A DNA stretch of 64,000 bases from SAR86 cluster bacterium AG-422-O05 (GCA_003213495.1 QCMW01000002.1:4303-68302); one strand, 5' to 3'; shown: positions 44,335 to 61,288, numbered from the stretch's first letter. The notes: a model not told the origin generated them from the letters alone. Program-made: numbers and translations.

Positions 44335-44352
44335 CACTAAGCATAAATAATA

Positions 44353-45314: not shown

Positions 45315-45342
45315 ACATATTATATTTATGAGGAGGAAAAAT

Positions 45343-46239
45343 ATGTTTTATAAAAATAAATTAATGATACTTTATTTGATGAGTATCATATTTATCGTAA
45401 GTTGTTCCAATGATATGAAAGTTGAGTCATCTGCTGAAAATGCTGATGGAGGTACTTATGATGAATTTGTAGAATCATTAGAAAGCACAGATGGAGAAAC
45501 ATATGTGGAATTTATGGCTTGTACTCGTGGTCCAGATTTCGATGCAGAAAATTCAACTAAGATGATAGCTGCTTGGCAAAAATTAGTTACAGCCGATTCA
45601 TTATTTGGTGTATGGGGATATGTTTCTGCAGCAGACACAAATTCATTTGGTGATACTCTTTGGTGGGAATTAAACTGGAATTCGAAAGAGGAAGCTGATG
45701 CAGAATGGGATGCATGGTATCAAAATGAAGAAGCACAAGCTTGGGCAGAGGAATATTCTAATGTTATGGTTTGTGATGGAGAGGGAAGAAATTCTTTTGA
45801 TGGTATATATCCAATTTTGCCAAATACTTATGGTGCTGTGAATGAGAGTGGCTATTTTTATAGTGAATTTTATCAATGCAATTACATAAATGAATCTGAG
45901 AGGGCAGACGCTGAAGCATTTTTACCAGGATTTACTGATGCGGTTGCTAACTCTGGTTATGATGGAACCGGTTATTCTTATGCAAATTATTTTGCGCACA
46001 AAAATGAGAACGGATCACATGTGGATACCGATGTTGATTTTTTATGGGCTAATTTCTCAAATAGCAAAGATTCAATGGATAAAGCAAGTGAAATGTTTGA
46101 TAAAGATGTAAGACCTAAAATGTTTCCATTATTTAGTGAATTTGCAACATGTGCAGATACACCAGATGTTTACCATGGCTGGACATTTTATATAGGGGAT
46201 AAAAAGGAATTTATGCCTGACTTTAATTCAATGGATTGA
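45343..46239 (+). CDS. lipoprotein with two tandem alpha+beta (dimeric alpha/beta-barrel/NIPSNAP-like) modules
   Basis: The start is trimmed to ATG 45343 (AGGAGG at 45331). The lipobox is FIVSC. The internal duplication is TYVEFMACTRGPDFDAENSTKMIAAW / FYSEFYQCNYINESERADAEAFLPGF and LWWELNWNSKEEADAEW / FLWANFSNSKDSMDKASEMF. Confidence 0.7.
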   Translation: MFYKNKLMILYLMSIIFIVSCSNDMKVESSAENADGGTYDEFVESLESTDGETYVEFMACTRGPDFDAENSTKMIAAWQKLVTADSLFGVWGYVSAADTNSFGDTLWWELNWNSKEEADAEWDAWYQNEEAQAWAEEYSNVMVCDGEGRNSFDGIYPILPNTYGAVNESGYFYSEFYQCNYINESERADAEAFLPGFTDAVANSGYDGTGYSYANYFAHKNENGSHVDTDVDFLWANFSNSKDSMDKASEMFDKDVRPKMFPLFSEFATCADTPDVYHGWTFYIGDKKEFMPDFNSMD

Positions 46240-46256
46240 AACAAAAATAAAAAGAT

Positions 46257-46285
46257 GAAGCTGCTTTAGGCAGCTTCTTTTTTTT
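46257..46285 (+). terminator. rho-independent terminator
   Basis: GAAGCTGC-TTTAG-GCAGCTTC is followed by T8. Confidence 0.85.
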
Positions 46286-46304
46286 GTGGTACATTTTACA
46301 TACT

Positions 46305-47393
46305 ATGATTATAGGAGTTCCCTCAGAAGTTAAAAATAATGAGAATCGTGTTGGTTTGACACCTGATTCTGCAAGAAAGATTGTAGGTTCTGGGCATGAC
46401 GTTTTAATACAAAAAAATGCTGGTGCTAATATTGGTTTTTTTGACGAACAATATTTAGGTGCTGGGGCTAAAATTGTGAATTCTGCTGAAGACGTTTATA
46501 AATCCTCAGAGATGATTGTTAAAGTTAAAGAACCTATTCCGGATGAATATCCTTTTTTAAGAGATGATTTAACTCTATTTACATATCTTCATTTAGCTGG
46601 TGATCCAGAAAATGCAAAAAAATTAATAGACACTGGGGTTACAGGAATTGCGTATGAAACAGTCACAGCTTCTGATGGCTCAATGCCACTTTTAGCTCCC
46701 ATGAGTACGATTGCAGGTCAATTAGCTATTATAGTTGGTTCATATCATCTCCTAAAACATAATAAAGGTAAGGGTGTAATGATTGGTAAGCTAGATAATA
46801 TCGAACCTAGAGTAGTTACAGTTATCGGGGCTGGTGTAGCAGGAACTCAATCAATTTCAAAAGCTTTAGATAACAATGCCTTTGTGAAAGTTCTTGATAC
46901 TAAGAAATCAAAGCTTCAGAAATTAGAGTCAGAGTTTGGTTCAAACAATATAGAGTATATTTTATCAACAAGTGACTCAGTACAATCCGCAATCAACGAA
47001 TCAGATATGGTTATTGGGAGTGTTTATGTAGTTGGAAAGGAGGCTCCGAAAGTTGTATTTAAAGATATGTTGAAATCTATGAATCCAGGAACCGTAATGG
47101 TGGATGTATCTATTGATCAGGGGGGATGTTTTGAAACAAGCAGACCAACAACTCATGACAACCCAACATTTGTAGAAAACGATATTGTTCATTATTGTGT
47201 TACCAATATGCCAGGGGCAGTCCCTTTAACAGCAACTCAGGCATTAAATAAAGTAACTCTTAAATATATAGAGGATTTAGCTAATAAGGGAGTAGAAAAC
47301 GCTCTTACCGAGGATGAACATTTAAGAAATGGTTTAAATATTAAAGATGGTGAAATTACTCACCCTGCAGTAAGAGATGCATTAAATAATTAA
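46305..47393 (+). CDS. ald: alanine dehydrogenase
   Basis: The start is trimmed from TTG 46284 (inside the terminator T-run) to ATG 46305. Motifs MIIGVPSEVKNNENRVGLTP and GAGVAGT are present. Confidence 0.93.
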   Translation: MIIGVPSEVKNNENRVGLTPDSARKIVGSGHDVLIQKNAGANIGFFDEQYLGAGAKIVNSAEDVYKSSEMIVKVKEPIPDEYPFLRDDLTLFTYLHLAGDPENAKKLIDTGVTGIAYETVTASDGSMPLLAPMSTIAGQLAIIVGSYHLLKHNKGKGVMIGKLDNIEPRVVTVIGAGVAGTQSISKALDNNAFVKVLDTKKSKLQKLESEFGSNNIEYILSTSDSVQSAINESDMVIGSVYVVGKEAPKVVFKDMLKSMNPGTVMVDVSIDQGGCFETSRPTTHDNPTFVENDIVHYCVTNMPGAVPLTATQALNKVTLKYIEDLANKGVENALTEDEHLRNGLNIKDGEITHPAVRDALNN

Positions 47394-47404
47394 GGAGATA
47401 AAAT

Positions 47405-48412
47405 ATGGAAAAAGTTTTAGTCACAGGAGCAACAGGATACATCGGCTTGCATTGTATTCATCAACTTCTTAATCAAGGATATGCTGTTAATGGTTCGGTA
47501 CGTTCTCCTGAAAGGAAAGATGAAATATTTGATGCTCTAAGAAATCATAATACCTCAACGGAAAATCTTAATATATACACATTCGATTTAAATGATGATG
47601 ATGGGTGGGATCAAGGCATGGAAGGCTGTGATTATTTACTTCATGTTGCTTCGCCAATTGCATTAGAGAATCATGATGAGGATTTTTTTGTAAAACCAGC
47701 TGTAGCTGGTGTAAAACGTGCAATGAAATTTGCAAAAAAACACAATGTTAAGAAGGTTGTTTTAACATCTTCAGTAGCTGCAATTTTCGAAACAATGGAG
47801 ACAAAAAGCTATTTTGATGAAACAGATTGGTCTGACCCAGACAATCCTGCAATTAGTCACTACTCTAAAAGTAAAACATTGGCTGAGAAGGCTGCATGGG
47901 ATTATGTTGAAACAGAAAATCATCCTTTTGAACTAGCTGTAATTAATCCTGCATTAGTAATAGGACCATCTTTATCAGGAGACTTAGGTGAGTCAAACAA
48001 AGCTATTGAGATGGTAGCAACAGGCAAAATGCCAGTAGCTGTTCCGCTACAATTTGGATATGTAGATGTCAGAGATGTAGCAGCAGCACATATTTTAGCA
48101 ATGCAAAATCCTGCTAGTAATGGTGAGAGATTTGCTTTAGCTGAAAAAGACCTATGGTATAAAGATGTTGCTAAAGTACTTAAAGACAATGGATTTGATA
48201 AGGCTCCAACTTTTGCTGTTCCAGTTTGGCTTGCAAAAATACTTGCTAACTTTAGTAGGGAATTAAAATTGACATTACCTTATCTTGGAAGAGTTAGAAG
48301 CGTTAAGAATACTTCAAAAGCTAAAGATATTCTTGGCTGGAAACCAAGACCTGCAGAAGAATCTATTGTAGAAATTGCCCAGCAGATTCAGGACATGGGA
48401 TTAATTAAATAA
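47405..48412 (+). CDS. NAD(P)-dependent extended SDR (aldehyde/dihydroflavonol-reductase-like epimerase/dehydratase family)
   Basis: Motifs VLVTGATGYIG and catalytic YSKSK (Y-x3-K) are present. An SD sequence (AAGGAGA) is present. Confidence 0.85.
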   Translation: MEKVLVTGATGYIGLHCIHQLLNQGYAVNGSVRSPERKDEIFDALRNHNTSTENLNIYTFDLNDDDGWDQGMEGCDYLLHVASPIALENHDEDFFVKPAVAGVKRAMKFAKKHNVKKVVLTSSVAAIFETMETKSYFDETDWSDPDNPAISHYSKSKTLAEKAAWDYVETENHPFELAVINPALVIGPSLSGDLGESNKAIEMVATGKMPVAVPLQFGYVDVRDVAAAHILAMQNPASNGERFALAEKDLWYKDVAKVLKDNGFDKAPTFAVPVWLAKILANFSRELKLTLPYLGRVRSVKNTSKAKDILGWKPRPAEESIVEIAQQIQDMGLIK

Positions 48413-49172
48413 TACCTGGAATAATTGCCTTTCTGTTTTTAGGGTAATTTTCAAATTTCTTTTGATACCACTTGTGATGAGATATTGCTCTCGGAAATAG
48501 GTTTGCTATTACCCATATCAAAAAGACAACTCCAGAAATGCTCCAAGTTAATATTGCCCAGCCAATCCATTCAATAATTTCTCCAAAATAGTTTGGTGCA
48601 GAAATATATTTATATAAGAAACCATCTGGGATGTGATAACCAGGACCTTTTTTCTTTTTCATTGATGCTATGTAATAGTCAGATTTAATATTTATAAACA
48701 TTCCCATCAAGAATAGAGTTAATCCAACAATAAATATTGGGCTTGTAATCCAATTAGCAGAATATTCAGTAAAATAAAAAATTCCAAATGCTTGAATACT
48801 TACATTAATAATATTAAAACAGAATGCAGACAGCGCTATCGAAATCGGCATTTTTGGATTAGTCATTTCAATTGCAAATGGATAAATAAAAGTTCTATGT
48901 ATATAGTGCGTCAACCATAACAAAAGGAAAATTTCGTGCACAACGTTCAACTGATCTTTAACAATAAGCCCATAGGCTATCATCAAAATCACGCATGGTG
49001 ACTCCATAACAACCCATCCTAATCTTGCAGAAATATTTATTCCCCAACCTTTTTTTATATGCCTACCATAAGGTGCGCTTTGGAAAAACAAATATACAAA
49101 GGTACAAATTGCAACAAGCACCCATAGAATTAAAAAGATATAAAAACTATTCATAATTAATTTATTAAACAA
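48405..49172 (-). CDS. 3-oxo-5-alpha-steroid 4-dehydrogenase (steroid 5-alpha-reductase) family membrane protein
   Basis: 255 aa, polytopic. The C-terminal motif PDGFLYKYISAPNYFGEIIEWIGWAIL parallels SRD5A ...GGLFEYVSCPNYFGEIMEW.... Confidence 0.8.
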   Translation of the reverse strand: MFNKLIMNSFYIFLILWVLVAICTFVYLFFQSAPYGRHIKKGWGINISARLGWVVMESPCVILMIAYGLIVKDQLNVVHEIFLLLWLTHYIHRTFIYPFAIEMTNPKMPISIALSAFCFNIINVSIQAFGIFYFTEYSANWITSPIFIVGLTLFLMGMFINIKSDYYIASMKKKKGPGYHIPDGFLYKYISAPNYFGEIIEWIGWAILTWSISGVVFLIWVIANLFPRAISHHKWYQKKFENYPKNRKAIIPGII

Positions 49173-49235
49173 AGTTTACAGTTTCAATTCTAAATCATAA
49201 ACTAAATATATATTTTTCTTTGGAGAGATTTATCA

Positions 49236-50915
49236 ATGAATGATTATGATTTTATTATTCTAGGTGCTGGCTCAGCGGGTTGTGTTTTAGCTAATAGACT
49301 AAGTAAAAACTCTAATTTTAAGGTATGTCTTATAGAGGCTGGTTCAAAAGATTCAGATCCTAGGTTGCATATACCTTTAGGCTTTGCATTTTTAGGAGAC
49401 GGAAGTAAATTTAGTTGGAATTATGAAACTGTTCCTCAAAAAGAATTCGAGAAAGAGGTTGTTGCCCAGCCTGTTCAAGAAGTAATAGATTCAACCGGTG
49501 GAACTCACAAAGTTGAAACTGAATCAATGGAGCATAGAAAAGGATTCCAACCAAGAGGAAAGACTCTTGGGGGGTCTAGCTCAATCAATGCAATGTTATA
49601 TGTCAGAGGGCATCGATGGGATTATGATCATTGGTCAGAATTAGGAAATGAAGGCTGGTCGTATGACGAAGTTCTTCCTTATTTTAAAAAGGCTGAACAC
49701 AATGAAGAATTTGATGATGAATTTCATGGCCAGAGGGGACCTTTAAATGTTTCTAAGATTAGACATCAAAACACACCAACTGATGATTTTGTTAAAACTG
49801 GTTCTGAGTTATTTGGTTTTAATGATGATTTTAATGGTGCTGAGCAAGAGGGCGTAGGTTATTATCAAACTACACAAAAAGATGGAAAAAGATGCAGCGC
49901 TGCAAAGGCATATCTAGTTCCTGCATTAGAAAGAGAAAATTTAACTGTAATGACAGATACAAATGTTAATAAAATTCTATTTGAAAATAAGAAAGCTGTT
50001 GGTGTTGAATGTATCGACAAAGATGGGAAAGTGATAATAGTCAATGCAAATAAAGAGGTAATATTGAGCTCAGGTGCATTTGGATCTCCTCAAATATTAT
50101 TAAGATCTGGCATTGGGCCGTTAGGAGAAATAGTAAAGCATGACATTGAACACATTCATGAACTTCCAGGTGTTGGCAAAAATTTACAAGACCATATTGA
50201 TTATTTATCTGTGCACAAATATAACTCCATTGAATTAATTGGATTTTCTTTAAAATCGATCTTTTATAAATTTCCACTTGAGATAATAAAGTATATTTTT
50301 GCAAAAGTTGGTTTGTTCACGTCAACAGTTGCAGAGGCAGGTGGATTTATCAAAACAAATAATGAAAAAGATATACCAGATATCCAGTTACATTTTGCAC
50401 CAGCTATGGTTATTGATCATGGAAGAACTTCGGTCTGGGGCCATGGACTAAGTTGTCATGTATGTCTTTTAAGGCCTAAGTCAAGAGGAGAGGTTACTTT
50501 GAAATCTTCTGATCCTTTTGAAGACCCTTTAATAGATCCAAAGTTTTTATCTCACCCTGATGATGTTGCAGACCTAGTTGAGGGATATAAAAAAATGATG
50601 ACCATTTTAAATAAAAGCCCTGTAAGTAAATATACATCTAGTCATGTGCAGCGACCAATAGATTTAAACGATAATGAAGATATTGAACAAGCAATAAGAG
50701 AAGAAGCAGACACTGTTTATCATCCAGTAGGAACTTGCAAGATGGGTAGTGATGAAATGGCGGTGGTTAATCACAACTTGGAAGTACATGGTATTGAAGG
50801 ATTGAGAGTTGTTGATGCATCTATCATGCCAACATTAATAGGAGGTAATACCAACGCACCAACCATAATGATTGGAGAAAAAGCTTCAGATATTATTTTA
50901 GAGCATTGGTCTTAG
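49236..50915 (+). CDS. GMC-family FAD oxidoreductase (choline/alcohol dehydrogenase-like)
   Basis: Motifs DFIILGAGSAGCVLANRLS, GGSSSINAM and the C-terminal HPVGTCKMG are present. Confidence 0.9.
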   Translation: MNDYDFIILGAGSAGCVLANRLSKNSNFKVCLIEAGSKDSDPRLHIPLGFAFLGDGSKFSWNYETVPQKEFEKEVVAQPVQEVIDSTGGTHKVETESMEHRKGFQPRGKTLGGSSSINAMLYVRGHRWDYDHWSELGNEGWSYDEVLPYFKKAEHNEEFDDEFHGQRGPLNVSKIRHQNTPTDDFVKTGSELFGFNDDFNGAEQEGVGYYQTTQKDGKRCSAAKAYLVPALERENLTVMTDTNVNKILFENKKAVGVECIDKDGKVIIVNANKEVILSSGAFGSPQILLRSGIGPLGEIVKHDIEHIHELPGVGKNLQDHIDYLSVHKYNSIELIGFSLKSIFYKFPLEIIKYIFAKVGLFTSTVAEAGGFIKTNNEKDIPDIQLHFAPAMVIDHGRTSVWGHGLSCHVCLLRPKSRGEVTLKSSDPFEDPLIDPKFLSHPDDVADLVEGYKKMMTILNKSPVSKYTSSHVQRPIDLNDNEDIEQAIREEADTVYHPVGTCKMGSDEMAVVNHNLEVHGIEGLRVVDASIMPTLIGGNTNAPTIMIGEKASDIILEHWS

Positions 50916-50919
50916 TTTT

Positions 50920-51240
50920 ATGAAAAAGTTTATTTTAAGTATAGCTTTTCTATGTATCACTTTAATTACATCACTAAATGCTGAAGTAATAATCGATGTC
51001 AGAACGATTGATGAGTATAACTCTGGCCACATAGAAAACTCATTAAACATTGAATGGCAGGCTATAGATGAGATTAATCATTCTATTTCTAAAGATGAAA
51101 AAATATATCTTTACTGCAGAAGTGGAAACAGATCAGGTAAAGCACAAAATATCTTAATTAATATGGGATACAAAGACGTAATTAACTTAGGTGGCATAAA
51201 TACTGCTGCAAAGACATTAGGTTTAAATATTGTTAAATAA
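50920..51240 (+). CDS. secreted single-domain rhodanese-like sulfurtransferase
   Basis: Signal peptide is present. The active-site loop is YCRSGNRSGKA. Confidence 0.85.
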   Translation: MKKFILSIAFLCITLITSLNAEVIIDVRTIDEYNSGHIENSLNIEWQAIDEINHSISKDEKIYLYCRSGNRSGKAQNILINMGYKDVINLGGINTAAKTLGLNIVK

Positions 51241-51255
51241 CATTAATAAATATTT

Positions 51256-52179
51256 ATGAAGAGTTTTTTCAGTTTTTTATCAAAATCATCTCAAAAAAAA
51301 ATTTTATGTCTTGATGGTGGTGGAGTCAGAACTATAGCTGCATTAGTTTTTTTAAAAAAACTTGAATCAGAGAGCGGTAAAAAAGTTACAGATATATTTG
51401 ATATGTTTATCGGTACAAGTGCAGGCTCATTGAACGCAGCGTGTTTTGCATATGGTGACTTTTCTGCAGAAAAAGTTAAAAATTATTGGTCAAAAAAATA
51501 TCTTGATAGGATAATGAAAAGTTCTTTTTTTTGGGACAAAGCGTCCTTAATTCAAGCAAGACCAAGATATGAAAACGATGGAAGAATCAATGTGCTTAAT
51601 GAAATTTTCAAAGATAACACTTTAGATAAATCTAAGAAGCCCTTCTTGTGCTATGCATATGATATTGAAAAACGAACACATTCAGTTTTCGATTCCTTCA
51701 ATACACCTGAAATTACTTTTAAAGACGCTGTTGCAGCTTCAAGTGCTGCTCCAATGTATTTTCCTTCTTATCAAATGCAAAATAAATCTTGGATGATCGA
51801 TGGAAGTATAATTACAAATAACCCAACCTTGATTGGATATACATATGCAAAAAATTTATTGGAATCTGAAAATATTAAAATTTTGAGCATTGGTTCAGGT
51901 CAAAATAAAAAGAAAATAAGTGGTGAGGCATCGACAAAATGGGGTGGTGTTGGATGGTTAAGAAACGATATTATGGGGATGCTGCTCGATTCAGAGATTC
52001 ATAATGATATTTCTGGAGATATTTTTAAAAAAAATTATTTAAGAATTAATTCACCGCTTGGAAAGGTTAATAAATTCCTTGATGATGATTCAGAAGAAAA
52101 TTTAGAAAGAATCCATTTAATGGGTATGGAGTGGTGGACCAGATATGGAGAAGAAGCGCTTTCATTTATTGAAAAATAA
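51256..52179 (+). CDS. patatin-like phospholipase
   Basis: Oxyanion motif is LDGGGVRT. Nucleophile motif is GTSAGS. Catalytic Asp lies in IDGSIITNNP. Confidence 0.85.
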   Translation: MKSFFSFLSKSSQKKILCLDGGGVRTIAALVFLKKLESESGKKVTDIFDMFIGTSAGSLNAACFAYGDFSAEKVKNYWSKKYLDRIMKSSFFWDKASLIQARPRYENDGRINVLNEIFKDNTLDKSKKPFLCYAYDIEKRTHSVFDSFNTPEITFKDAVAASSAAPMYFPSYQMQNKSWMIDGSIITNNPTLIGYTYAKNLLESENIKILSIGSGQNKKKISGEASTKWGGVGWLRNDIMGMLLDSEIHNDISGDIFKKNYLRINSPLGKVNKFLDDDSEENLERIHLMGMEWWTRYGEEALSFIEK

Positions 52180-52279
52180 ATATTTAAATTATATATAAAA
52201 ACTTGTTATAAACTTGACATAAACAATACAAAAAAGTTTAATCTTCATCTTATACACATAAATACCTAGGGGGTTAAAC

Positions 52280-55200
52280 GTGAAACAATTTTTATTGTCA
52301 TTGGTGTTCTTATTGCCAGTATCTTCTTATGTTTTTGGACAAGAAACTGAAGAGGAGAACGAAAACGAAGTTGAGGAAATTGTCGTTACTGGTATAAAGT
52401 CAAGTTTAGTCGATGCTATTGAAATAAAAAGAAATAACATCGGTGTCACCGAAATTATTACAGCAGAAGACGTTGGAAAATTTCCTGATGGAAATATTGC
52501 TGAAGCCTTAGCAAGAGTTTCTGGTATTGCAATTGACAGAAGCAATATCGAAGGAAAGGAAGTTACTGTAAGGGGTATGGGTGCTCAATATAACATGGTA
52601 ACTTTAAATGGAAGAGTTATGCCGGTTGCTCCTGGTAATTATGATGGTGGTAGAGCCTATGACTTTGGAGCAATATCTTCACATGGAATAGCTAGAGTTG
52701 AGGTATATAAATCACAAAATCCTTCTTTACCCTCAGGTGGTTTAGGGGCCACGATTAACATGGTTACTGCAAAACCTTTGGAAGTAGATAATGGAGGAGC
52801 ATTATCATTTTTATTGATGTCAGATTCCACAAATGTAAACGGAGATGATATGACACCAGAACTTGAGTTTATTCATAGTTATAAATCTAGCTATCTTGGA
52901 CTGGATTGGGGTGTCTCATTTTCTGGATCTTATCATGACAGAAGTAACAGAGAAGAAACCACAAATGAAATGAAGTGGCTTCCTAGTAATCTTCAAGCAC
53001 CTACTTTTGGTCCAAACGTCACCGATAATAGTGGTGGCATTGTTAATTATAGGCCTCAAGGATTTTTTGTTGGTTACAAAGACAATCAACGCGAAAGAAA
53101 AAATCTTGCAGCCTCATTTCAAGTATCAAATCAAACTACGACAGTTACAATTGATGGAGTTTATTCAGGTGTTGATTTTCAGTCATCTGGTAATAGGGCA
53201 GGTTCAGGACTTGATATTGCCTACAGCGTTCCTTATGGGGCAGGCATTGGTATGGATAATGTAAATATTGATTCAAATGGTGTTGTAAACCAATTTGATA
53301 TTGTTGGATCTGGAACAAACTTGACTCAATTTGTTGATTGGAGCTCTGAGAAAACAGCAAACAGATCAATTGGTCTTAATGTTGAATGGACTGGTTCAGA
53401 TAGCTTAACTCTTGAATTTGACTATCATAATTCAACAGCTGTTAATTCAGGTGGTGCTAATGATATGGGATTTGCAAATGGCTCATGGTCTGGATATGGA
53501 GATGGGCAAAGTTTTGATAATGGAAACCCCTACAACCAATGGGCTGAACTTACTAATTTAAGATTTATTGCCAATAATACTATTCCTGATTGGATTCCAA
53601 CAACAAGTGTTGGTTTTCAATGGTATCCAAGAACTGAAAGAGATTTAGAAGGGGTTGATATGTCATCGACAACTGCCCATTTAAGATATAACAATAAAGA
53701 AAGTAATCTTTCTCAATTTCAAATTAAAGGTGATTGGCAAAACATTAATGAATTTTTATTGGAGAAGCTGGTATCAGTTCAGTTTGGACTTTCATCAATT
53801 GAACAAAAGTTTGATAGAACTCTGAGGTCAAATACATTATTTGCACCCATTCAAGACGGTGCTGCGCCTGGCTCTTTGATATGGGGTCCCAATTTTTGGA
53901 ATGATGATGCGTTTACACTTACAAGTTTAGCTGGTTTACTGGGCGATTCATCCGACGGTTTAAGCGTACCTTATTATATGCATATCAATTTTGATGATGC
54001 TGTAGCAGGCTACTCTCAAGGATATTGGATAAATTCTCCTACTTGGAATTGTTCTGAAGGTTTCCCAAATTGTTATGGTTCTCCAGAGGATATTGCTACA
54101 GTAAAGGAATCGACAGATTCAGCATATATACAATTAAACTTTGAAGGTGAATACAACATGATGCCTTGGAAGCTAGTTACTTCTTTAAGATATGAAGAAT
54201 TGATGCTTAAAGCTCCTCAAAACTATAATGTTCCAACAGGCACTTTCATAGGTACTTACGGTTGGGGTGATGGCCCGTATTTTATTTTTGGACCTACTCA
54301 AAATGGAGAAATGCCATTAAGAAATATTTCAGGATCATATAGTTCTAAATCTGAAATGGTTTTACCAAGTTTTGCTTTTAGTATTGCTCCGTCCGAAAAT
54401 ACAGTCGTAAGATTAAGTGCAGGTAAAACTATTGCTAGATCAGGCTTAGAAAAATTTTCACCTAATGTTGTATTTCCTCAGTTCCTTAGCATGAATAATC
54501 CAGTTCACGTAAATACATCAGGTAATCCTGATTTAGAACCTCTAGTTAGTAATAATATTGATTTAGCTTTTGAATATTATTATGCAGAGGGTAGCTATGC
54601 CGCTGTTAATATTTTCCAGAAAGATTTAAAAGACTTTCCAGGCAACTCTACAACAAGAGTTACTTATGATGGTTTATATGATGTTAGATATGGAGTCAAT
54701 GGAGCTGGGCCAGCTGATACCTCAACAGTTGTGTTAAATTGGCCAAATTATCAAACTATAGATCAAGTAACTTTTGGAAGTATGGATTGGTGGCAAACAT
54801 TAATGAAAATTTACCATGCAACCGTTCCAGGTACATCATGTACTTTAGACCAAAGAACTTGGAGTGACTATTTTTATTATAATAGTACAGAATGTGTTCA
54901 AAGCAGCTCTTCAATTAATCCATTAATGCAATTCGATATTAACAGGCCTGAAAATATTTATTCGGGTAAGCTTGATGGAGTTGAGATAGCGCTTCAACAT
55001 TTCTTTGTAAACACCAATTTTGGATTTATTTTTAACTACACTTTTATTAATGGAGATACAGAGGCATCACCTACTGCTGTAAGAAATGAATCCTTTGAAT
55101 TGGCTGGATTTGGAGACTCTGGAAACCTATCTGTTTTCTATGAAAATGAAAAATTTTCTGCCAGACTTTCCAATAATTATAGAGCTGAAACATATGTTGG

Positions 55201-55411
55201 ATTTGATGAGTATAACCCTTTATGGGTTGAGGCAAGATCACAAGTTGACTTCAGTGCATCATATAGAGTTAATGATGGCGTTAGTCTTTTTGTGGAAGGA
55301 TTAAACATAACTGATTCCGAAGTGCGTTTATACGCAAGATATGACAATATGTTATTCTTAGCGCAAAATCATGGACCTGTTTACAAGGCTGGATTCAGAG
55401 TTAAGTTTTAA
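52280..55411 (+). CDS. TonB-dependent outer-membrane receptor
   Basis: GTG start with an AGGGGG SD. Signal peptide, acidic linker and EEIVVTG are present. Plug motifs are NIAEALARVSGI and TLNGR. It has a long beta-barrel ending ...YKAGFRVKF. Confidence 0.93.
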   Translation: MKQFLLSLVFLLPVSSYVFGQETEEENENEVEEIVVTGIKSSLVDAIEIKRNNIGVTEIITAEDVGKFPDGNIAEALARVSGIAIDRSNIEGKEVTVRGMGAQYNMVTLNGRVMPVAPGNYDGGRAYDFGAISSHGIARVEVYKSQNPSLPSGGLGATINMVTAKPLEVDNGGALSFLLMSDSTNVNGDDMTPELEFIHSYKSSYLGLDWGVSFSGSYHDRSNREETTNEMKWLPSNLQAPTFGPNVTDNSGGIVNYRPQGFFVGYKDNQRERKNLAASFQVSNQTTTVTIDGVYSGVDFQSSGNRAGSGLDIAYSVPYGAGIGMDNVNIDSNGVVNQFDIVGSGTNLTQFVDWSSEKTANRSIGLNVEWTGSDSLTLEFDYHNSTAVNSGGANDMGFANGSWSGYGDGQSFDNGNPYNQWAELTNLRFIANNTIPDWIPTTSVGFQWYPRTERDLEGVDMSSTTAHLRYNNKESNLSQFQIKGDWQNINEFLLEKLVSVQFGLSSIEQKFDRTLRSNTLFAPIQDGAAPGSLIWGPNFWNDDAFTLTSLAGLLGDSSDGLSVPYYMHINFDDAVAGYSQGYWINSPTWNCSEGFPNCYGSPEDIATVKESTDSAYIQLNFEGEYNMMPWKLVTSLRYEELMLKAPQNYNVPTGTFIGTYGWGDGPYFIFGPTQNGEMPLRNISGSYSSKSEMVLPSFAFSIAPSENTVVRLSAGKTIARSGLEKFSPNVVFPQFLSMNNPVHVNTSGNPDLEPLVSNNIDLAFEYYYAEGSYAAVNIFQKDLKDFPGNSTTRVTYDGLYDVRYGVNGAGPADTSTVVLNWPNYQTIDQVTFGSMDWWQTLMKIYHATVPGTSCTLDQRTWSDYFYYNSTECVQSSSSINPLMQFDINRPENIYSGKLDGVEIALQHFFVNTNFGFIFNYTFINGDTEASPTAVRNESFELAGFGDSGNLSVFYENEKFSARLSNNYRAETYVGFDEYNPLWVEARSQVDFSASYRVNDGVSLFVEGLNITDSEVRLYARYDNMLFLAQNHGPVYKAGFRVKF

Positions 55412-55430
55412 AAATATATATCAAAAGTAA

Positions 55431-55456
55431 AAGAGGGCTTTTTAGCCCTCTTTTTT
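55431..55456 (+). terminator. rho-independent terminator after the TonB-dependent receptor
   Basis: AAGAGGGC-TTTTTA-GCCCTCTT is followed by a T-run. Confidence 0.85.
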
Positions 55457-55468
55457 ATTTGTATAAGA

Positions 55469-55474
55469 TATAAT
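55469..55474 (+). promoter_or_regulatory. TATAAT hexamer 6 nt upstream of ATG 55481 (possible leaderless start)
   Basis: Read directly. There is no SD between the hexamer and the ATG. Confidence 0.3.
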
Positions 55475-55480
55475 TTGTAT

Positions 55481-57532
55481 ATGAATATTCTTAGGATATT
55501 TATTGTTATATTTTTTATTGTTTCCTGTGGTGGAGGCGGAGGAGGCGGCAGTGCACCCCCAGCTCCATTTGCAATAACTCTTGCATCAAGCACTTCTATA
55601 TCAGTTGATGAAGATACTACATACACAGGTAATGTAGTTGCAACTGCTAATGAGCCTGTAACACTTGAATATGCACTTGTTTCTTCAACAACAAATGGAA
55701 TCCTTACTTTTTTGACAACTGGAGCTATCACTTATACTCCCAATGAAAATTTTAATGGGCAAGATGAATTTTCTTATTCTGTTACTGCAGTCGAAAAAAG
55801 CATTACAAGAAATAGCACAGTTACAATTACAGTTAATTCTGTAAACGATTTGCCACAGATATCATTAGATTCAAAATTAAATTTAGACAAAGATCATCTT
55901 ATTTTTGAAAATAATCCTACATTTTCTGTTTCGTTTTCAGATGTTGATAATATAGATACAGATTTTAGTTTTAGTGCATCTATAAACTCGGAAAATGTTG
56001 GAGCAACTTTTACTTCAACTGGTGATGGTCAAGGAGATATAGTTCTAGATTTATCAACTCTATCTAAAGCAGGTTTATTCAATGCGGAAATTATAATATC
56101 TGATGGTATGGATACCGCTAGTGATTCATTTAATACATGGTTCATATCTAATAAACAAACCGTTACTGTTGCTCAAGATGACGACAAAAGTGATGGTTTT
56201 GATTCTGGCACCACAACAAATAAAGATTATTATGTGTATTATCTTGTTGGAGGTGGCTCAACCTTTGGAAGAACTGATTACTTGTTTGTTGCTGATTCAT
56301 TAAAAGCAGACCCTAATGATGGAACGTTATCTGATACTGATAGTTTTAGAGAAGCTTTACTGAAATCCATTAATGCTCTTAATGATTCAGATGCTTCTGA
56401 ATTTTTTACAGGCTATTTTGATATTGTTGTTGCAGAGCCAGTAAGTCCTGATGGAACTTCTTTAGCATCTATTGAAACAGGTTGTTATGACTGGGATGAG
56501 GATGTTTATTGCATTGGCTCTGGCGATATAAATGATTCTGTTTTTGATGATCTGTTTGCTGAACATGATTTAGTCTCAGTCCTAACAATGATAGATGGCA
56601 GAGGAGTGAATTTGGGTAACACTAACATTCAAGAAATCAAACCTAGAACAGAATATACTTTAATGCATGAGTTGGGTCATGCACATGGTGAAATGGGAGA
56701 CGAATATATAACTACTGACGATAGAGATGTCAGTCAATGGGCAGATAGAAATGTTAATACGACAACACAGGCAGATCCATCATTAGTTAAATGGAATCAT
56801 CACATATCAGACTTTATGAATGTAGCGGGAAAAGACTTTAAGGTTTGTTATAACTATGCAGATGGATCTATTTATGACGAGGGTGAGGATGCAACTACAT
56901 GCGACTGTTTGTTCAATTTATATGATGCAAATGGAAATAGAACTGGTAGAAATCCAGAATGCGATGTTGTTGGCCTTTTTGAAGGAAATTATTATGGGGA
57001 GTTTGATAATTATAGGCCAAAATACTGGACTATTATGGAGGGCGGTATTTTAAAATATGGTGAGGTTAATACTGAAGGTTTCGCAATAGGATCAATTCAT
57101 AACCAGGGTTTTTTATATGGTGATGAGGTAGGTTTTGTCACCGATGAGTCGGGGGCTAGAACTGGTTTTGAAATAGATATTGATGTTGTATATGATAATT
57201 CTAAGTTAAGACTTAAATGGTATATAAATGGTGTTGAGGATCCATCAAAAGAAAATCAAACAAGAATAGTATTTGATAGACCGACCAATAATACTGTGCA
57301 AATTTATACATGGAAAGTTGATGATCTTACTGGAACTGTTACAGCACCCGACGACGTAACTGATGTAAATGATTTTTATGAAGGATTATTTAATTCTGAT
57401 TTTTACTGGTGTGACAGAACAAGTGGCTCATGTCAGTGGGGCTATAACCCAACGGATCAATCCCAATATCATTATGGTTATGTAACTGGTCCAATGGGAG
57501 GGACCTGGGGTATTAATTGGTCAAGGTGGTAA
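55481..57532 (+). CDS. lipoprotein: Gly7 tether + Ig/cadherin-like (tandem-95-type) modules + M64-like zinc metalloprotease domain
   Basis: The start is trimmed from TTG 55475 to ATG 55481. Lipobox FIVSC is followed by GGGGGGG. The Ig-like module is ...VDEDTTYTGNV...ITYTPNENFNGQDEFSYSV...VNSVNDLPQ. The zincin motif is HELGHAHGEMGDEY (56666-56707). Confidence 0.8.
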   Translation: MNILRIFIVIFFIVSCGGGGGGGSAPPAPFAITLASSTSISVDEDTTYTGNVVATANEPVTLEYALVSSTTNGILTFLTTGAITYTPNENFNGQDEFSYSVTAVEKSITRNSTVTITVNSVNDLPQISLDSKLNLDKDHLIFENNPTFSVSFSDVDNIDTDFSFSASINSENVGATFTSTGDGQGDIVLDLSTLSKAGLFNAEIIISDGMDTASDSFNTWFISNKQTVTVAQDDDKSDGFDSGTTTNKDYYVYYLVGGGSTFGRTDYLFVADSLKADPNDGTLSDTDSFREALLKSINALNDSDASEFFTGYFDIVVAEPVSPDGTSLASIETGCYDWDEDVYCIGSGDINDSVFDDLFAEHDLVSVLTMIDGRGVNLGNTNIQEIKPRTEYTLMHELGHAHGEMGDEYITTDDRDVSQWADRNVNTTTQADPSLVKWNHHISDFMNVAGKDFKVCYNYADGSIYDEGEDATTCDCLFNLYDANGNRTGRNPECDVVGLFEGNYYGEFDNYRPKYWTIMEGGILKYGEVNTEGFAIGSIHNQGFLYGDEVGFVTDESGARTGFEIDIDVVYDNSKLRLKWYINGVEDPSKENQTRIVFDRPTNNTVQIYTWKVDDLTGTVTAPDDVTDVNDFYEGLFNSDFYWCDRTSGSCQWGYNPTDQSQYHYGYVTGPMGGTWGINWSRW

Positions 57533-57540
57533 AAAGACGT

Positions 57541-58008
57541 ATGAGATATTTATTTATTTTAGCTTTTGTATTTTCCTTTACAGTTATGGCTGAAAAAGAT
57601 TTAAAAGAAATAGACCTAATTAAGCTACACGTTTCACCAAATCAAGATGCAAAGATATTTACTTTTCATGGTACTCCAGATTTATTTACATTGAAAAAAA
57701 TCGAAGTTCAAAAACCTAAAGAGAGAATTCTTAAAAAACTTAAATTTGTAAGCGATGATGATAAGTATGCAGTAAAGCTATTTGATAATTCAGGAAGGCA
57801 CTTAATAACTTTAGGTATTGGTAATCCATTTTATGCATCGTATGAGCATATTGGATATGAAGACAGAGCATACATGGGTGGACCTGTATCCGCAAATAAT
57901 TTAAGCATAGCAATTCCTATTGAGTTAGATCCATCATATCTCATAATTTCAAGGCGAGATGTCACTGGAAAATTTATAGATTTTCAAGAGATACTTTTGC
58001 CACAATGA
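57541..58008 (+). CDS. secreted protein of unknown function linked to the M64-like lipoprotein
   Basis: The start is trimmed to ATG 57541, 9 nt after the upstream stop. Signal peptide is MRYLFILAFVFSFTVMA. It is 155 aa with a beta-rich pattern. Confidence 0.6.
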   Translation: MRYLFILAFVFSFTVMAEKDLKEIDLIKLHVSPNQDAKIFTFHGTPDLFTLKKIEVQKPKERILKKLKFVSDDDKYAVKLFDNSGRHLITLGIGNPFYASYEHIGYEDRAYMGGPVSANNLSIAIPIELDPSYLIISRRDVTGKFIDFQEILLPQ

Positions 58009-58061
58009 CGATTTAATATTGTTGAAAGCAACCATGTTAAAGAGTATATTAAGCATCCAAT

Positions 58062-58137
58062 GCGGTACTAGCTCAGTTGGTAGAGCGTCTGCTTGCCAAG
58101 CAGAAGGCCGCCGGTTCGAGACCGGCGTACCGCACCA
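58062..58137 (+). tRNA. tRNA-Gly (anticodon GCC)
   Basis: 76 nt. Acceptor stem is GCGGTAC/GTACCGC. Anticodon stem is TCTGC/GCAGA with loop TTGCCAA. T arm is GCCGG-TTCGAGA-CCGGC. CCA is encoded. Confidence 0.95.
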
Positions 58138-58178
58138 ACTTATATCTAAAATATTTATATAAAACTAATCTTCCGATA

Positions 58179-58194
58179 AATACATTAATGTATT
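58179..58194. promoter_or_regulatory. perfect 16-bp palindrome AATACATTAATGTATT (candidate operator)
   Basis: Read directly. It lies 29 nt upstream of ATG 58223, between tRNA-Gly and the SD AGGAGAG. Confidence 0.35.
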
Positions 58195-58222
58195 ATTAAT
58201 ATTCATATTAGGAGAGATAATT

Positions 58223-58930
58223 ATGAAAAAATTTTTTTATAGCTTATTCGCTTTTGTTTTTCTAACATCACAATCATTAAATGCAGCAGGCTATTTGGCG
58301 ACATATTCAATGAAGGTTTCAAATCCAGCTGCTTATGTTGAAGCGCTTGATGAGTTAATGAATACTGATTGGGGTAAGTCATTTGCTGGAGATGTTTCAC
58401 TCCATCAATATGCATTCAATGGTTATGATGATGCAACCCATGTTGTTGTTCTAAATTATGAAAATCCAGAAAGCTTAGGTACCGGAACAGAATCTTTTAC
58501 GGATCCTGTATTTTTATCATTCTTTGCTGAAACTGCTTCTATCGCTGAGCCAGTAGAACAGTCTTTAAACATGAAATTAATTAGCGTATACAATGAAAAC
58601 GCTGATGAAGATCAAGTTTATACAATCTACAGAATGCAAGTTAAAGATGCTTCTGCGTATGCTAAAGAATATACCAAACTTACAAACGCTCAAGTTGAAT
58701 CAGGAAATATCCAAGGTAGCTATGGTCTAAGACAATTGGTTGCTGGTGATACTAGATACTATACACATTATGCTTATACAAGTGCTCCAAGTGTTGCAGA
58801 AGCTATGAAATCAGCTGAAACTTTGTACGGAAGCGATTCATTTGCAAAGTTTGCAGATAAGGTCAGTGAAAACAGAAGAGTTATGAATATTTCTATATTA
58901 ACTAATATTGTTAACTATCCTGCAAATTGA
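58223..58930 (+). CDS. secreted protein with two tandem alpha+beta (dimeric alpha/beta-barrel/NIPSNAP-like) modules
   Basis: Signal peptide is ...LTSQSLNA. The internal repeat is YLATYSMKVSNPAAYVEALDEL / VYTIYRMQVKDASAYAKEYTKL and THVVVLNYENPES / YYTHYAYTSAPSV. Confidence 0.7.
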   Translation: MKKFFYSLFAFVFLTSQSLNAAGYLATYSMKVSNPAAYVEALDELMNTDWGKSFAGDVSLHQYAFNGYDDATHVVVLNYENPESLGTGTESFTDPVFLSFFAETASIAEPVEQSLNMKLISVYNENADEDQVYTIYRMQVKDASAYAKEYTKLTNAQVESGNIQGSYGLRQLVAGDTRYYTHYAYTSAPSVAEAMKSAETLYGSDSFAKFADKVSENRRVMNISILTNIVNYPAN

Positions 58931-58950
58931 TTTTATAGATTTTCTAAATA

Positions 58951-58973
58951 AGGGAGCTTTTGCTCCCTTTTTT
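58951..58973 (+). terminator. rho-independent terminator
   Basis: AGGGAGC-TTTT-GCTCCCT is followed by a T-run. Confidence 0.85.
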
Positions 58974-58987
58974 ATTTTTAGCTAATT

Positions 58988-58993
58988 TATAAT
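58988..58993 (+). promoter_or_regulatory. TATAAT hexamer 7 nt upstream of ATG 59001 (possible leaderless start)
   Basis: Read directly. No SD is present. Confidence 0.3.
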
Positions 58994-59000
58994 ATATGAA

Positions 59001-59948
59001 ATGTATATTTTTAAGTTTTTACTAGTATTAATTCTGCTTTATTCGTGTGGAGGTGGATCTTCAAGTACAGATTTTGAAAATAACCCTCCAACCACCCAAA
59101 CACTAAATTCAACTGAAACATGTATAAGTACTCAAGTGCCAAATCTTAAAAGATGCGATTTAGTGCATGATAATATTGATAGATTTTACTTTTTGTATGA
59201 GCCGTCTAATCTCGATACAAATTCAAGTATTGCTGTTTTATTTGCACTTCATGGATACGGATCTTCTGCGATGACTCACTTTAATTATACAAATTATGAG
59301 CCCCTTGCTAATGCGAATAATTTTATTGTTGTATATCCCCAAGGTACAACTAGTAATGGCTTAAATACTCATTGGAATAATGGAGGTTGGACCTCTAAAA
59401 GCACTGCTAAAGATATTGAATTTATAGATACTGTTATTGAATATATTAAATATAAAATTTCTATTGACGTAAAAAGAATATATTCTTCTGGAATGTCTAA
59501 TGGTGGCTATATGAGTTATCACTTAGCTTGCAATCTAGACAACACATTTGCTGCTGTGGTTTCTGTTACTGGATCAATGACTACTGATACTTTTGATAAT
59601 TGTGCACCGTCACATCCAACTGCTGCAATGCAAATTCATGGGGTACAAGATTTAACAGTTCCATATCTAGGAAGCGGTTGGTCAAAAAGTATTGAAGATG
59701 TAATTGATTATTGGGTCAGTTACAATTCTTGTGATTTTGAACCCGAAAGGCTAATTAAATACTCTAATCAAACAGATTTAATAAATTTCGATACTTATGG
59801 CGGATGTTTAAATAATGTTAATGTTAAATTAATTCTACATTCTGAAATGGGCCATACCTGGCCTTTCATTCAAAACTACAATATAGATGCTAGTCAAGAA
59901 ATATGGGATTTTGTTTCAAAGTATGATTTGGATGGCTTAAGAAATTAG
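59001..59948 (+). CDS. lipoprotein esterase, PHB-depolymerase/feruloyl-esterase-like alpha/beta hydrolase
   Basis: Lipobox LLYSC is followed by GGGSSS. FALHGYGSS, the nucleophile elbow SGMSNGG, and the distal IHGVQD and MGHTWP are present. Confidence 0.8.
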   Translation: MYIFKFLLVLILLYSCGGGSSSTDFENNPPTTQTLNSTETCISTQVPNLKRCDLVHDNIDRFYFLYEPSNLDTNSSIAVLFALHGYGSSAMTHFNYTNYEPLANANNFIVVYPQGTTSNGLNTHWNNGGWTSKSTAKDIEFIDTVIEYIKYKISIDVKRIYSSGMSNGGYMSYHLACNLDNTFAAVVSVTGSMTTDTFDNCAPSHPTAAMQIHGVQDLTVPYLGSGWSKSIEDVIDYWVSYNSCDFEPERLIKYSNQTDLINFDTYGGCLNNVNVKLILHSEMGHTWPFIQNYNIDASQEIWDFVSKYDLDGLRN

Positions 59949-60033
59949 GTATAAAAAATTTACATATTTGTATCAAAATTTTCTTATTTGAATGTTATAT
60001 TAGAAATTCGTTTTTATTATAGAGGAGATAAAT

Positions 60034-60462
60034 ATGAGATTATTATTAATTTCAATGTTGATATTTTCTGTATCAGCCTTTACTCAAGAAGAGTCATCAA
60101 GAGAACCTGCACCTGGCGTAACAGAGCTTACTGTTATAAAAGTTAAAGCCAACTATCTTGGAGATTATATGGATGGAATTGAAAAAACATGGGTTGCATC
60201 TAATCAAATTGCTAAAGATATGGGCAAAATTGTTGATTATGGCGTTTATGTTGGAAACAATAACTATGTATATTTGACAGTTCAACACGAAAGTTATGCT
60301 TCTATGGATCCATCGTATTGGTCTGAAGAAGAAACAGAAGAATTTCAAACTAAATTTCGAAAAATTATTTCACAAGATGATCAAACATCAACCGCGCAAT
60401 CATATGAAGACATTCGTGAAATTGTTAGAGTTGAAATGATCAATCAAATTATTTTTAAATAG
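60034..60462 (+). CDS. secreted single-module alpha+beta protein (same family as neighbours, putative)
   Basis: 142 aa with a signal peptide. The beta1-alpha1 pattern is TELTVIKVKANYLGDYMDGIEKTW. A strong SD is present. Confidence 0.6.
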   Translation: MRLLLISMLIFSVSAFTQEESSREPAPGVTELTVIKVKANYLGDYMDGIEKTWVASNQIAKDMGKIVDYGVYVGNNNYVYLTVQHESYASMDPSYWSEEETEEFQTKFRKIISQDDQTSTAQSYEDIREIVRVEMINQIIFK

Positions 60463-60471
60463 GAGGAAAAT

Positions 60472-61224
60472 ATGAAACTTTTATTAAGTTTAAGTTTGCT
60501 ATTAAGCTTTAGTGTTTTTGCAGATGATCATGATTCACAAGAGTCACAATGGAATGTTGCTGAATATTATGTAAGTGTTTTCAAGGATGGCAAAGACATG
60601 GATGACATGATGAAATGGGCAGAAAAATGGAATAGTTGGGCCAATGAGACAGACGATCTTAAAGACTATCGTTCAGCAATGCTTGTGCCTTATTATCACA
60701 GTGGAGAACAACCTCATGACTTTGTATGGGTTGGAATAAGTCCTACTCCAGAAGCTCATTTCAAAGGGAATGATCATTGGTTTAGCAATGGCACAAAACT
60801 CTTAGCAGAATTAAATAAAATTTTGGAAACAGGTAATCAAACTACTTATACATGGCAAAGAGTTGTTTCAGACACACCAAGTGGACAAGCTGGTTATGCA
60901 GTATATACAGATTGTAAGTTGGGAGATGGAGTTACTGCAGATGAATTTTATACTGCATATGTTGCATATGCCAAAGCAGCAAAAGAAAAAGGAGATGTTG
61001 CTGGAAGAAAAATGATTTTTCCACAATCTGGAGTTCCTACAACATGGGATTATGATTTTGTTCAGTTAGTTTCAACAGAAACCATTACTGATTATGGAAA
61101 AAATTGGACTAATTTTTGGAGTAGTGCAACTCCTGAAAGCATGCCCGAATTAAAAGCATTAAATGATTTAGGTGGTTCATGTGAAAATGAAAGAACATAT
61201 GGAATCGTTCCAGTTCGTAATTAG
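60472..61224 (+). CDS. secreted protein with two tandem alpha+beta modules, paralogue of 45343-46239
   Basis: Signal peptide is ...SVFA. VAEYYVSVFKDGKDMDDMMKWAEKW / GYAVYTDCKLGDGVTADEFYTAYVAY, and DFVQLVSTETITDYGKNW...GGSCENERTYG parallels FLWANFSNSKDSMDKASEMF...FATCADTPDVYHG. Confidence 0.7.
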   Translation: MKLLLSLSLLLSFSVFADDHDSQESQWNVAEYYVSVFKDGKDMDDMMKWAEKWNSWANETDDLKDYRSAMLVPYYHSGEQPHDFVWVGISPTPEAHFKGNDHWFSNGTKLLAELNKILETGNQTTYTWQRVVSDTPSGQAGYAVYTDCKLGDGVTADEFYTAYVAYAKAAKEKGDVAGRKMIFPQSGVPTTWDYDFVQLVSTETITDYGKNWTNFWSSATPESMPELKALNDLGGSCENERTYGIVPVRN

Positions 61225-61243
61225 CCATAATTAAAAAAATACA

Positions 61244-61266
61244 AGGGAGCCAATGGCTCCCTTTTT
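61244..61266 (+). terminator. rho-independent terminator
   Basis: AGGGAGCC-AAT-GGCTCCCT is followed by a T-run. Confidence 0.85.
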
Positions 61267-61276
61267 ATTTATAATT

Positions 61277-61282
61277 CATAAT
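61277..61282 (+). promoter_or_regulatory. CATAAT hexamer 6 nt upstream of ATG 61289 (possible leaderless start)
   Basis: Read directly. No SD is present. Confidence 0.25.
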
Positions 61283-61288
61283 AATTTA

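Follow-up and report, generated by a model that had tools for sequence, protein, structure and literature searches.

In the surface ocean, SAR86 bacteria rank with the most abundant heterotrophs. They have unusually many TonB receptor loci, which are thought to drive the use of lipids and polymers, and many of the genes at these loci are still labelled 'hypothetical'. This study concerns a set of small exported proteins, here called A to E, encoded in and around one such locus in a stretch of 64,000 nucleotides (nt) from SAR86 cluster bacterium AG-422-O05 (GCA_003213495.1, QCMW01000002.1:4303-68302), analysed at its full length and referred to as the window (~32% G+C). At the level of fold, the nearest known structure is the PDB entry 2pgc, which SCOP places in the dimeric alpha+beta barrel superfamily, among families named 'marine metagenome'; tandem antibiotic biosynthesis monooxygenase (ABM)-type proteins, another near match, act without a cofactor on hydrophobic substrates. 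The 2pgc structure was solved by JCSG from an uncharacterised Global Ocean Sampling (GOS) protein and is among five structures from novel GOS families (PMC2557142). At the level of the locus, the description of SAR86 receptor loci by Dupont et al. (2012) includes lipid-degrading enzymes, among them a locus with a patatin, a rhodanese/beta-lactamase-family protein and a flavin oxidoreductase for which sulfolipid use or degradation was proposed, and it gives 19-33 receptors per SAR86 genome with only two ABC importers (PMC3358033). The best explanation of the present data as a whole, considered reasonably probable, is that an A/D superfamily and the protein B family are exported barrels in a conserved receptor and lipid-hydrolase cluster, where they would bind lipid-derived substrates or process them without a cofactor.

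The original prediction had placed five exported proteins in the window, and all five open reading frames (ORFs) lie where it put them on the forward (+) strand, with hydrophobic N-termini that resemble Sec signal peptides and lack a twin-arginine motif. Protein A (45343-46239, 298 residues) is a lipoprotein of two modules, as had been predicted; it belongs to the A/D superfamily, with modules at about residues 48-165 and 166-298, and has a lipobox I-V-S-C21 whose Cys21 is kept in 41 of 43 sequences; since Ser follows at position +2, A is probably of the outer-membrane type. Its start is set at 45343 because all homologues begin at that Met, which rules out a longer ORF from 45268. Protein B (58223-58930, 235 residues) and protein D (60472-61224, 250 residues) are Sec-exported tandem barrels according to their models, with modules at about residues 22-125 and 126-235 in B, which contains no Cys, and about 24-136 and 137-250 in D. 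The two remaining proteins are both of 142 residues: protein C (60034-60462), of a separate family with a conserved T-W-V motif, and protein E (43906-44334).

A scan against Pfam-A and NCBIfam returned no match for any of the five at E<=1, in line with the earlier statement that no named family fits. At the same threshold there is no profile match to any family of the Dim_A_B_barrel clan (SCOP d.58.4), and the kinship proposed with ABM (PF03992), NIPSNAP (PF07978) or EthD (PF07110) proteins thus found no profile match for A-E. Among PDB chains no sequence relative was found, A, B, C and D having been searched as profiles and E as a single sequence. A, B and D each have a compact, same-length family of marine-metagenome homologues, none of them named, with dozens to hundreds of conserved members per family; among the database copies found, all homologues of the three are labelled 'hypothetical protein'. 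Scanning one genome per species with a D-family profile yielded 79 loci, almost all from SAR86 and a minority from Porticoccaceae (SAR92 and HTCC2207 types), including locus L001 in the SAR86 single-cell genome AG-430-D13, at 98% identity to the window.

Pairwise BLAST among A-E and a 91-residue ORF at 42424 finds nothing significant beyond signal peptides. Since hhalign profile comparisons of narrow alignments gave weak signals, several of which were signal-peptide alignments, the profiles were trimmed and widened to 135 D-type, 43 A-type and 75 B-type sequences, including ORFs from the 79 loci. Signal peptides were removed and the proteins split into halves before comparison, and 30 column-shuffled profiles and a reversed profile served as controls. 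The C-terminal module of A then aligns with the N-terminal module of D over 81-83 columns (96.9%, P 1.8e-10), with a score of 61.6 compared to 11.8+-3.1 for the shuffles (maximum 23.7) and 11.7 for the reversed profile. Furthermore, a hidden Markov model (HMM) of the A family detects D within the window (E 8.8e-5), and the D-family HMM detects an A-like protein of Porticoccaceae (E 2.8e-11). With a profile alignment far above the controls and HMM searches that agree, A and D are true, diverged paralogues of one superfamily. The predicted internal duplication is borne out for A, B and D: the N-module of A aligns with its own C-module (P 1.9e-4, score 29.6 compared to 12.5+-2.3 for shuffles), the halves of D (P 1.3e-4) and of B (P 1.8e-5) align in register above all 30 shuffles, and each repeat stands ~6-7 standard deviations over its column-shuffle controls.

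Scores of B, C and E with A, D and each other, signal peptides again removed, are ~8-19 and lie inside the shuffle range of 12+-3 (maximum ~24). On these profile comparisons B, C and E are not demonstrably paralogues of A/D, and the single paralogue family of four or five members that had been proposed is reduced to A and D. As an expanded, multi-copy family the proposal holds for the A/D superfamily, both in SAR86 and in Porticoccaceae. This superfamily is defined by profile-level homology and by tandem modules of which the C-terminal one, at least, has one Cys where beta1 ends and another where beta4 starts; this combination is common to A, to D and its paralogues and to the c24 lipoproteins described below, and is not found in B, C or E. 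Protein B represents a second family, which has the tandem architecture of A and D and, like D, 2pgc as its nearest structure, without a detectable sequence relation to A/D. Protein C is part of another, wider family whose members are small exported proteins. A widened profile of 72 representatives from a deep search has no match to the modules of A, B, D or E, and a Pfam scan of these representatives gives a single match, of a distant member to DUF6614 (E 8e-4). Protein E had been called ABM-like; it has no ABM match at E<=1 and no relation to A-D or to the ABM-positive neighbour cluster c61, against which all modules score in the null range (hhalign, P 0.17-0.95).

The fold assignment rests mainly on AlphaFold2 models of B and D, which are confident outside the signal peptides (mean predicted local distance difference test, pLDDT, 89.8 and 87.9; predicted template modelling score, pTM, 0.82 and 0.81, respectively). 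In both models, secondary structure assigned by DSSP runs beta1-alpha1-beta2-beta3-alpha2-beta4, with alpha2 split into two helices, twice per chain, and the example peptides that the original prediction had picked from B and D map onto beta1 and alpha1 of the modules. In Foldseek searches of the PDB, each model finds single-chain tandem ferredoxin-like barrels to which it aligns along its full length. The best template modelling score (TM-score) of both is with 2pgc (B 0.71/0.79, with a root mean square deviation, rmsd, of 3.2 A over ~213 columns; D 0.59-0.72), and further matches include the tandem ABM proteins 5f9p, 3mcs, 3f44 and PenE (9kdp), Cld/HemQ and sulfur oxygenase reductase. The full-length alignment to tandem-barrel chains (2pgc, 3mcs, 3f44, 5f9p and Cld/HemQ) supports a two-domain barrel packing for the modelled B and D. 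Taken together, the models support B and D as tandem ferredoxin-like barrels of the dimeric alpha+beta barrel kind, and A is supported indirectly, through its homology to D, as a protein of two alpha+beta modules. A crude, alignment-averaged propensity predictor gives patterns that would fit two beta-alpha-beta-beta-alpha-beta units in A and one each in C and E; its three-state accuracy (Q3) on B and D is only 0.61, and a single such module is a weakly indicated, putative assignment for C and E. The repeated beta-alpha-beta-beta module and barrel fold of the original prediction therefore stand for B and D and, by homology, for A, and are putative for C and E.

The sharing of Cys positions between A and D that had been pointed out before is confirmed. 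Both C148 and C237 of D are Cys in 133 of 135 sequences, down to ~28% identity, and the four Cys of A, paired as C60/C144 in the first module and C179/C270 in the second, are Cys in 43 of 43 sequences; across the A and D families this conservation persists to ~28-33% identity. In the model of D, C148 lies at the end of beta1' (142-149) and C237 at the start of beta4' (236-249), and each Cys pair of the two proteins combines the end of beta1 with the start of beta4 within one module. As beta1 and beta4 are antiparallel neighbours in the 4-1-3-2 sheet order, the paired Cys should be close. Conservation and topology are therefore compatible with the disulfide suggested earlier, predicted here as a bond between strands 1 and 4 within a module. 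Other residues are kept as well. The D paralogues conserve the charged or polar strand residues E31, Q129, D147, R179, K180, N239 and R241, and in B His73 and His182 are invariant at equivalent beta3 positions of the two halves; no His column reaches 90% conservation among the 135 sequences of the D superfamily. The conserved polar strand residues of D and the symmetric His of B suggest a specific site.

The genes for B, C and D lie in a cluster whose order is kept across SAR86 species: GMC oxidoreductase, rhodanese, patatin, TonB-dependent receptor, M64-like lipoprotein, small exported protein, B and esterase, followed by an optional second D paralogue, an optional C, then D, a flavin adenine dinucleotide (FAD)-dependent monooxygenase and malate synthase. 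In the window all of the following are on the forward (+) strand. The GMC oxidoreductase, rhodanese and patatin-like phospholipase (49236-52179) precede the receptor (52280-55411, 1043 residues), orthologues of which match plug and beta-barrel Pfam families. Then come the M64-like metalloprotease lipoprotein (55475-57532), with a Big_9/cadherin-like domain and a HELGH zinc motif, and a small exported protein (57517-58008) that overlaps it upstream of B. The esterase (59001-59948) is a lipoprotein of the PHB-depolymerase family, matching NCBIfam e_dPHAscl_type1 at 141 bits against a cut-off of 150 and also esterase_phb, and the FAD-dependent monooxygenase (61253-62416), named from its sequence and a pipeline label, lies directly downstream of D. 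Canonical loci were defined by a D orthologue of at least 45% identity with at least 8 kb of upstream sequence. Among the 31 such loci, the M64-like gene is found in 31, the esterase and the FAD monooxygenase in 28 each, the receptor in 26 and B in 24, and the optional C and second D paralogue in 10 each. Protein A stands further off: its orthologues, at 50-54% identity, keep a position ~6 kb upstream of the receptor, flanked by a SnoaL/lumazine-binding-like gene and alanine dehydrogenase.

Terminator-like hairpins on the forward (+) strand lie directly 3' of A (46257-46277), B (58950-58969) and D (61243-61263), and another follows the receptor. The hairpin scan found none between esterase, C and D, which are separated by gaps of 85 and 9 nt. 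Since hairpins bracket these three genes, with none inside and only short gaps, esterase, C and D are probably one transcription unit.

Individual genes of the cluster vary strongly. The receptor alleles at the conserved locus (L001-L037) fall into discrete classes of 96-99%, 81%, ~59% and 36-40% identity, and divergent alleles occur even where the flanking M64-like, GMC and esterase genes share 75-90% identity. Five genomes (L007, L016, L029, L031 and L032) lack the receptor, and in them the patatin is directly followed by the M64-like gene. These classes may reflect cassette replacement or diversifying selection, perhaps under phage pressure. Locus L037 is a mosaic with respect to the window, its esterase and M64-like gene being 80% and 82% identical, but D and C only 48% and 57%, which suggests recombination or replacement of single genes inside the cluster. 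In the M64-like lipoprotein the lipobox is followed by a Gly run (SCGGGGGGGSAPP), and a poly-Pro ORF on the minus strand (55408-55731) was rejected as a gene since it is merely the reverse complement of this run. The syntenic region upstream of the receptor that is conserved together with A (43408-50915) encodes two SnoaL/NTF2-like proteins, an epimerase-type short-chain dehydrogenase/reductase of the 3beta-HSD kind, the GMC oxidoreductase and, on the minus strand, a membrane protein of the steroid-5alpha-reductase family; its steroid or isoprenoid flavour is only a hint, because the Pfam families involved are broad.

Outside this cluster the A/D superfamily occurs in other settings. A set of 41 non-canonical loci carries D paralogues of 28-40% identity in several different conserved contexts. 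In the first, an A-like gene is followed by D, a PDZ protein, a second D, a cyclase, a membrane protein and a B-like gene, and in locus L039 then by a different receptor. The second consists of the A-like lipoprotein c24, D, MGMT, BolA and an MMPL transporter; the third, in Porticoccaceae, of YebC, D, a Rieske oxygenase and two DUF3604 proteins; the fourth of an alpha/beta hydrolase, an ABM protein, D and a SnoaL protein; and the fifth is made up of loci containing DUF305. Alpha/beta hydrolase, ABM, SnoaL, Rieske oxygenase and cyclase genes are thus among the neighbours of D paralogues. A-, B- and D-type genes therefore co-occur in two unrelated arrangements, the canonical cluster and the one seen in L038, L039 and L072. 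An iterated receptor HMM found a different receptor in only one of the 41 loci (L039). Five further non-canonical loci contain or overlap the canonical cluster itself, three being the cluster with a divergent D and two reaching its edge ~9 kb away. The predicted link to TonB receptors accordingly stands for this orthologous cluster (26 of 31 loci) and falls for the D paralogues elsewhere, so that receptor linkage is a property of the cluster and not of the A/D family. Receptor genes are frequent in SAR86 as a whole, at roughly one in every 50-65 kb.

An A-type lipoprotein gene directly adjoins a D-type gene in 12 of the 41 non-canonical loci, nine of them with c24, the others being L038, L043 and L068. 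The c24 protein is a 245-residue lipoprotein, very divergent and A-like, with two Cys-paired modules (hhalign 90.4%, P 1.4e-6). It is encoded directly upstream of the D-like gene (at ~8.8-9.5 kb) in L045, L050, L053, L054, L058, L061, L062, L066 and L071, and the pair adjoins MGMT, BolA and the MMPL-family transporter. Locus L050 (PAHL01000042.1) comes from a metagenome-assembled genome labelled 'Flavobacteriaceae bacterium' and carries the SAR86-type arrangement c20-c24-D-MGMT-BolA-MMPL; its taxonomic label is probably a binning error.

Two loci of other SAR86 genomes, L076 and L077, have an extra D-like paralogue of 34-35% identity at 9995-10732. It is inserted between the counterparts of a small membrane protein gene (42705-43103 in the window) and an RRM gene (43166-43411), a place at which the window lacks it. 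The 91-residue ORF nearby (42424-42699), without a signal peptide or Pfam match, reads like a small alpha+beta unit; it is conserved in SAR86, with 70% identity in L076 and L077, and belongs to a sequence cluster of n=166.

Homologues of C outside the cluster are found among housekeeping genes, and the presence of C in the cluster is therefore taken to be lineage-specific. One such homologue, of 41% identity, is found in L089 and L090 at 8001-8438, directly after the SpoU-methylase gene that comes behind queA-tgt-yajC-secDF. The variable region of the window (41164 onward) begins at this same junction, which seems to be a hotspot of small exported genes in SAR86.

In the A/D superfamily, an ancestral module with a Cys pair was duplicated in tandem to give a pseudo-dimeric barrel within a single chain. 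From these observations a role can be proposed for A, B and D. After Sec export, the proteins would fold in the periplasm, where the Cys pairs would be oxidised to disulfides; Sec export also implies folding without a preloaded cofactor, and the exported barrels would then carry no prebound one. Their ligands may be small molecules of hydrophobic or amphipathic character, most probably acyl or other lipid-derived products that are released by the neighbouring esterase and patatin hydrolases and enter via the receptor, and these would be either held or transformed without a cofactor. The lipid-substrate role is favoured because this fold class typically handles small hydrophobic molecules, because the neighbours are esterases, a phospholipase and oxidoreductases, and because the conserved residues suggest a specific site. 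The favoured reading is thus that proteins in the periplasm or anchored to the outer membrane bind lipid-derived substrates or process them without a cofactor, and both a carrier and an enzyme would fit it.

Several points weigh against this proposal. The role is read from fold class, neighbours and conserved residues and not from a ligand or an activity. Protein B is tied to A and D through its fold and gene neighbourhood only, and the barrel fold of C and E is putative. Many D paralogues adjoin housekeeping genes such as MGMT, BolA and YebC, so that a role with receptor-imported lipids may hold for this cluster only, and the homologues of C elsewhere are not near receptors, esterases or D. 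Furthermore, a catalytic chemistry common to the paralogues would explain residues kept in very different contexts no less well than a carrier role would.

The last point leads to the alternative with the best standing, namely that the proteins are cofactor-independent periplasmic enzymes (an oxygenase, isomerase or cyclase, like the barrels of ABM, muconolactone isomerase or polyketide cyclases) acting on lipid- or aromatic-derived substrates, and not carriers, which is held to be possible though on balance improbable. It draws on the tandem ABM monooxygenases among the Foldseek matches (the anthrone-oxidase-like 5f9p, PenE, 3mcs and 3f44), on the charged and polar strand residues that D paralogues retain at ~30% identity and the symmetric, invariant His of B, and on neighbours that include Rieske, ABM, SnoaL, GMC and FAD enzymes; Sec export would likewise suit cofactor-free chemistry. 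However, A-E match no ABM, EthD or related profile at E<=1, no known catalytic motif was identified in them, and for such enzymes it is unusual that a lipoprotein is repeatedly paired with a soluble paralogue.

A broader claim, in keeping with the original prediction, is that A-E make up a single expanded family of exported paralogues for which attachment to TonB receptor loci is characteristic. The shared topology of B and D, including the split alpha2, their common best TM-score match, the signal peptides on all five proteins and the two different arrangements in which A-, B- and D-type genes co-cluster speak for it. Yet in hhalign neither the comparisons among B, C and E nor those with A and D leave the shuffle range, C falls in a wider family found in unrelated contexts, and receptor linkage is absent for the D paralogues outside this cluster, which makes the claim unlikely.

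A more specific version of the carrier idea is that the A-type lipoprotein and the soluble D-type, perhaps also B-type, paralogues form a periplasmic relay for hydrophobic cargo, with an organisation like that of LolA/LolB. In SAR86 and SAR92-type bacteria, where binding-protein-dependent importers are almost absent, disulfide-stapled barrels would then carry the products of lipid hydrolysis from TonB-dependent receptors to the inner membrane. The literature on fatty-acid-binding alpha+beta barrels offered nothing directly usable here, and the relay, for which gene layout supplies the analogy, is quite speculative and regarded as doubtful. If true, it would represent a previously unrecognised class of periplasmic lipid carriers in some of the most abundant bacteria of the ocean.

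A role as haem or porphyrin binders of the chlorite dismutase, HemQ or DyP kind, serving receptor-mediated uptake of haem or iron, is very improbable. Chains of Cld, HemQ and coproheme decarboxylase do lead the Foldseek E-value ranking for D (~1e-7), and Cld, DyP and EfeB are extracytoplasmic in some bacteria. Although the Foldseek probability of B and D with Cld/HemQ is 1.0, the TM-scores are only 0.45-0.55, lower than with 2pgc, at an rmsd of 6-7 A, which indicates the same fold class and not a similarity at the family level. The D superfamily lacks a conserved His, the signal peptides are of the Sec and not the Tat type, and the neighbours of the receptor, itself of 1043 residues, are lipid hydrolases and not haem or iron genes. 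A haem-binding role for D was rejected on the missing His and the gene context, and a Cld/HemQ-like role is unlikely on the same grounds and in view of the low TM-scores.

Finally, the idea that the shared module is a generic amphipathic pattern arising by chance in unrelated ORFs of an AT-rich genome, to which the lack of significant BLAST hits among the five and the richness of low-GC proteomes in K, N, Y, I and F might point, is hardly credible, and is refuted for A, B and D by the confident models of B and D, the dozens to hundreds of conserved homologues per family, and an A-D homology and internal repeats far over the shuffle controls.

Three genes so far called 'hypothetical', those of A, B and D, are now placed in a defined fold, and an A/D superfamily with a conserved probable disulfide has been defined. 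The practical gain is modest, consisting of new Pfam-type families and a testable hypothesis on the handling of hydrophobic substrates in the periplasm, and no new principle is involved. The proteins do present concrete targets for biochemistry, now that the SAR86 isolate HIMB1674 exists.

Among known systems, 2pgc resembles B and D most: it is a single chain of ~205 residues with two ferredoxin-like halves, of marine origin and without an assigned function. However, identity to it is only 10-13%, and an hmmsearch of every PDB chain at E<=10, run with profiles of A, B and D, does not return it. The tandem ABM proteins (PF03992: 5f9p, PenE 9kdp, 3mcs and 3f44) likewise consist of two beta-alpha-beta-beta-alpha-beta domains that form a pseudo-dimeric barrel, and B matches them with Foldseek E-values of 1e-8 to 1e-10 and TM-scores of 0.54-0.64. 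They differ from the exported proteins described here in being cytoplasmic and in lacking the Cys pair. The Cld/HemQ/DyP proteins, some of which are periplasmic, share with D the tandem ferredoxin-like barrel and a similar length and give its top Foldseek E-values, but their proximal His haem ligand, which lies in the C-terminal domain, is not conserved in D, whose gene context is one of lipid hydrolysis; in B, the invariant H73 and H182 lie on the beta3 strands of both halves. LolA and LolB are a soluble periplasmic protein and an outer-membrane lipoprotein that are homologues of each other. The A-type lipoprotein adjacent to a soluble D-type paralogue, as found in the 12 non-canonical loci, resembles this pair in gene layout alone, since LolA and LolB are open beta-barrels with a lid and have an entirely different fold. 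The cluster in the window is of the same type as the receptor and lipid-hydrolase loci of Dupont et al. (2012), whose locus description does not mention proteins A, B, C and D (PMC3358033). Compared with these systems, the ferredoxin-like barrel fold and exported examples of it are known, whereas the families themselves, the conserved Cys pair within a module, the pairing of a lipoprotein with a soluble paralogue and the place of these proteins in SAR86 receptor loci are new.

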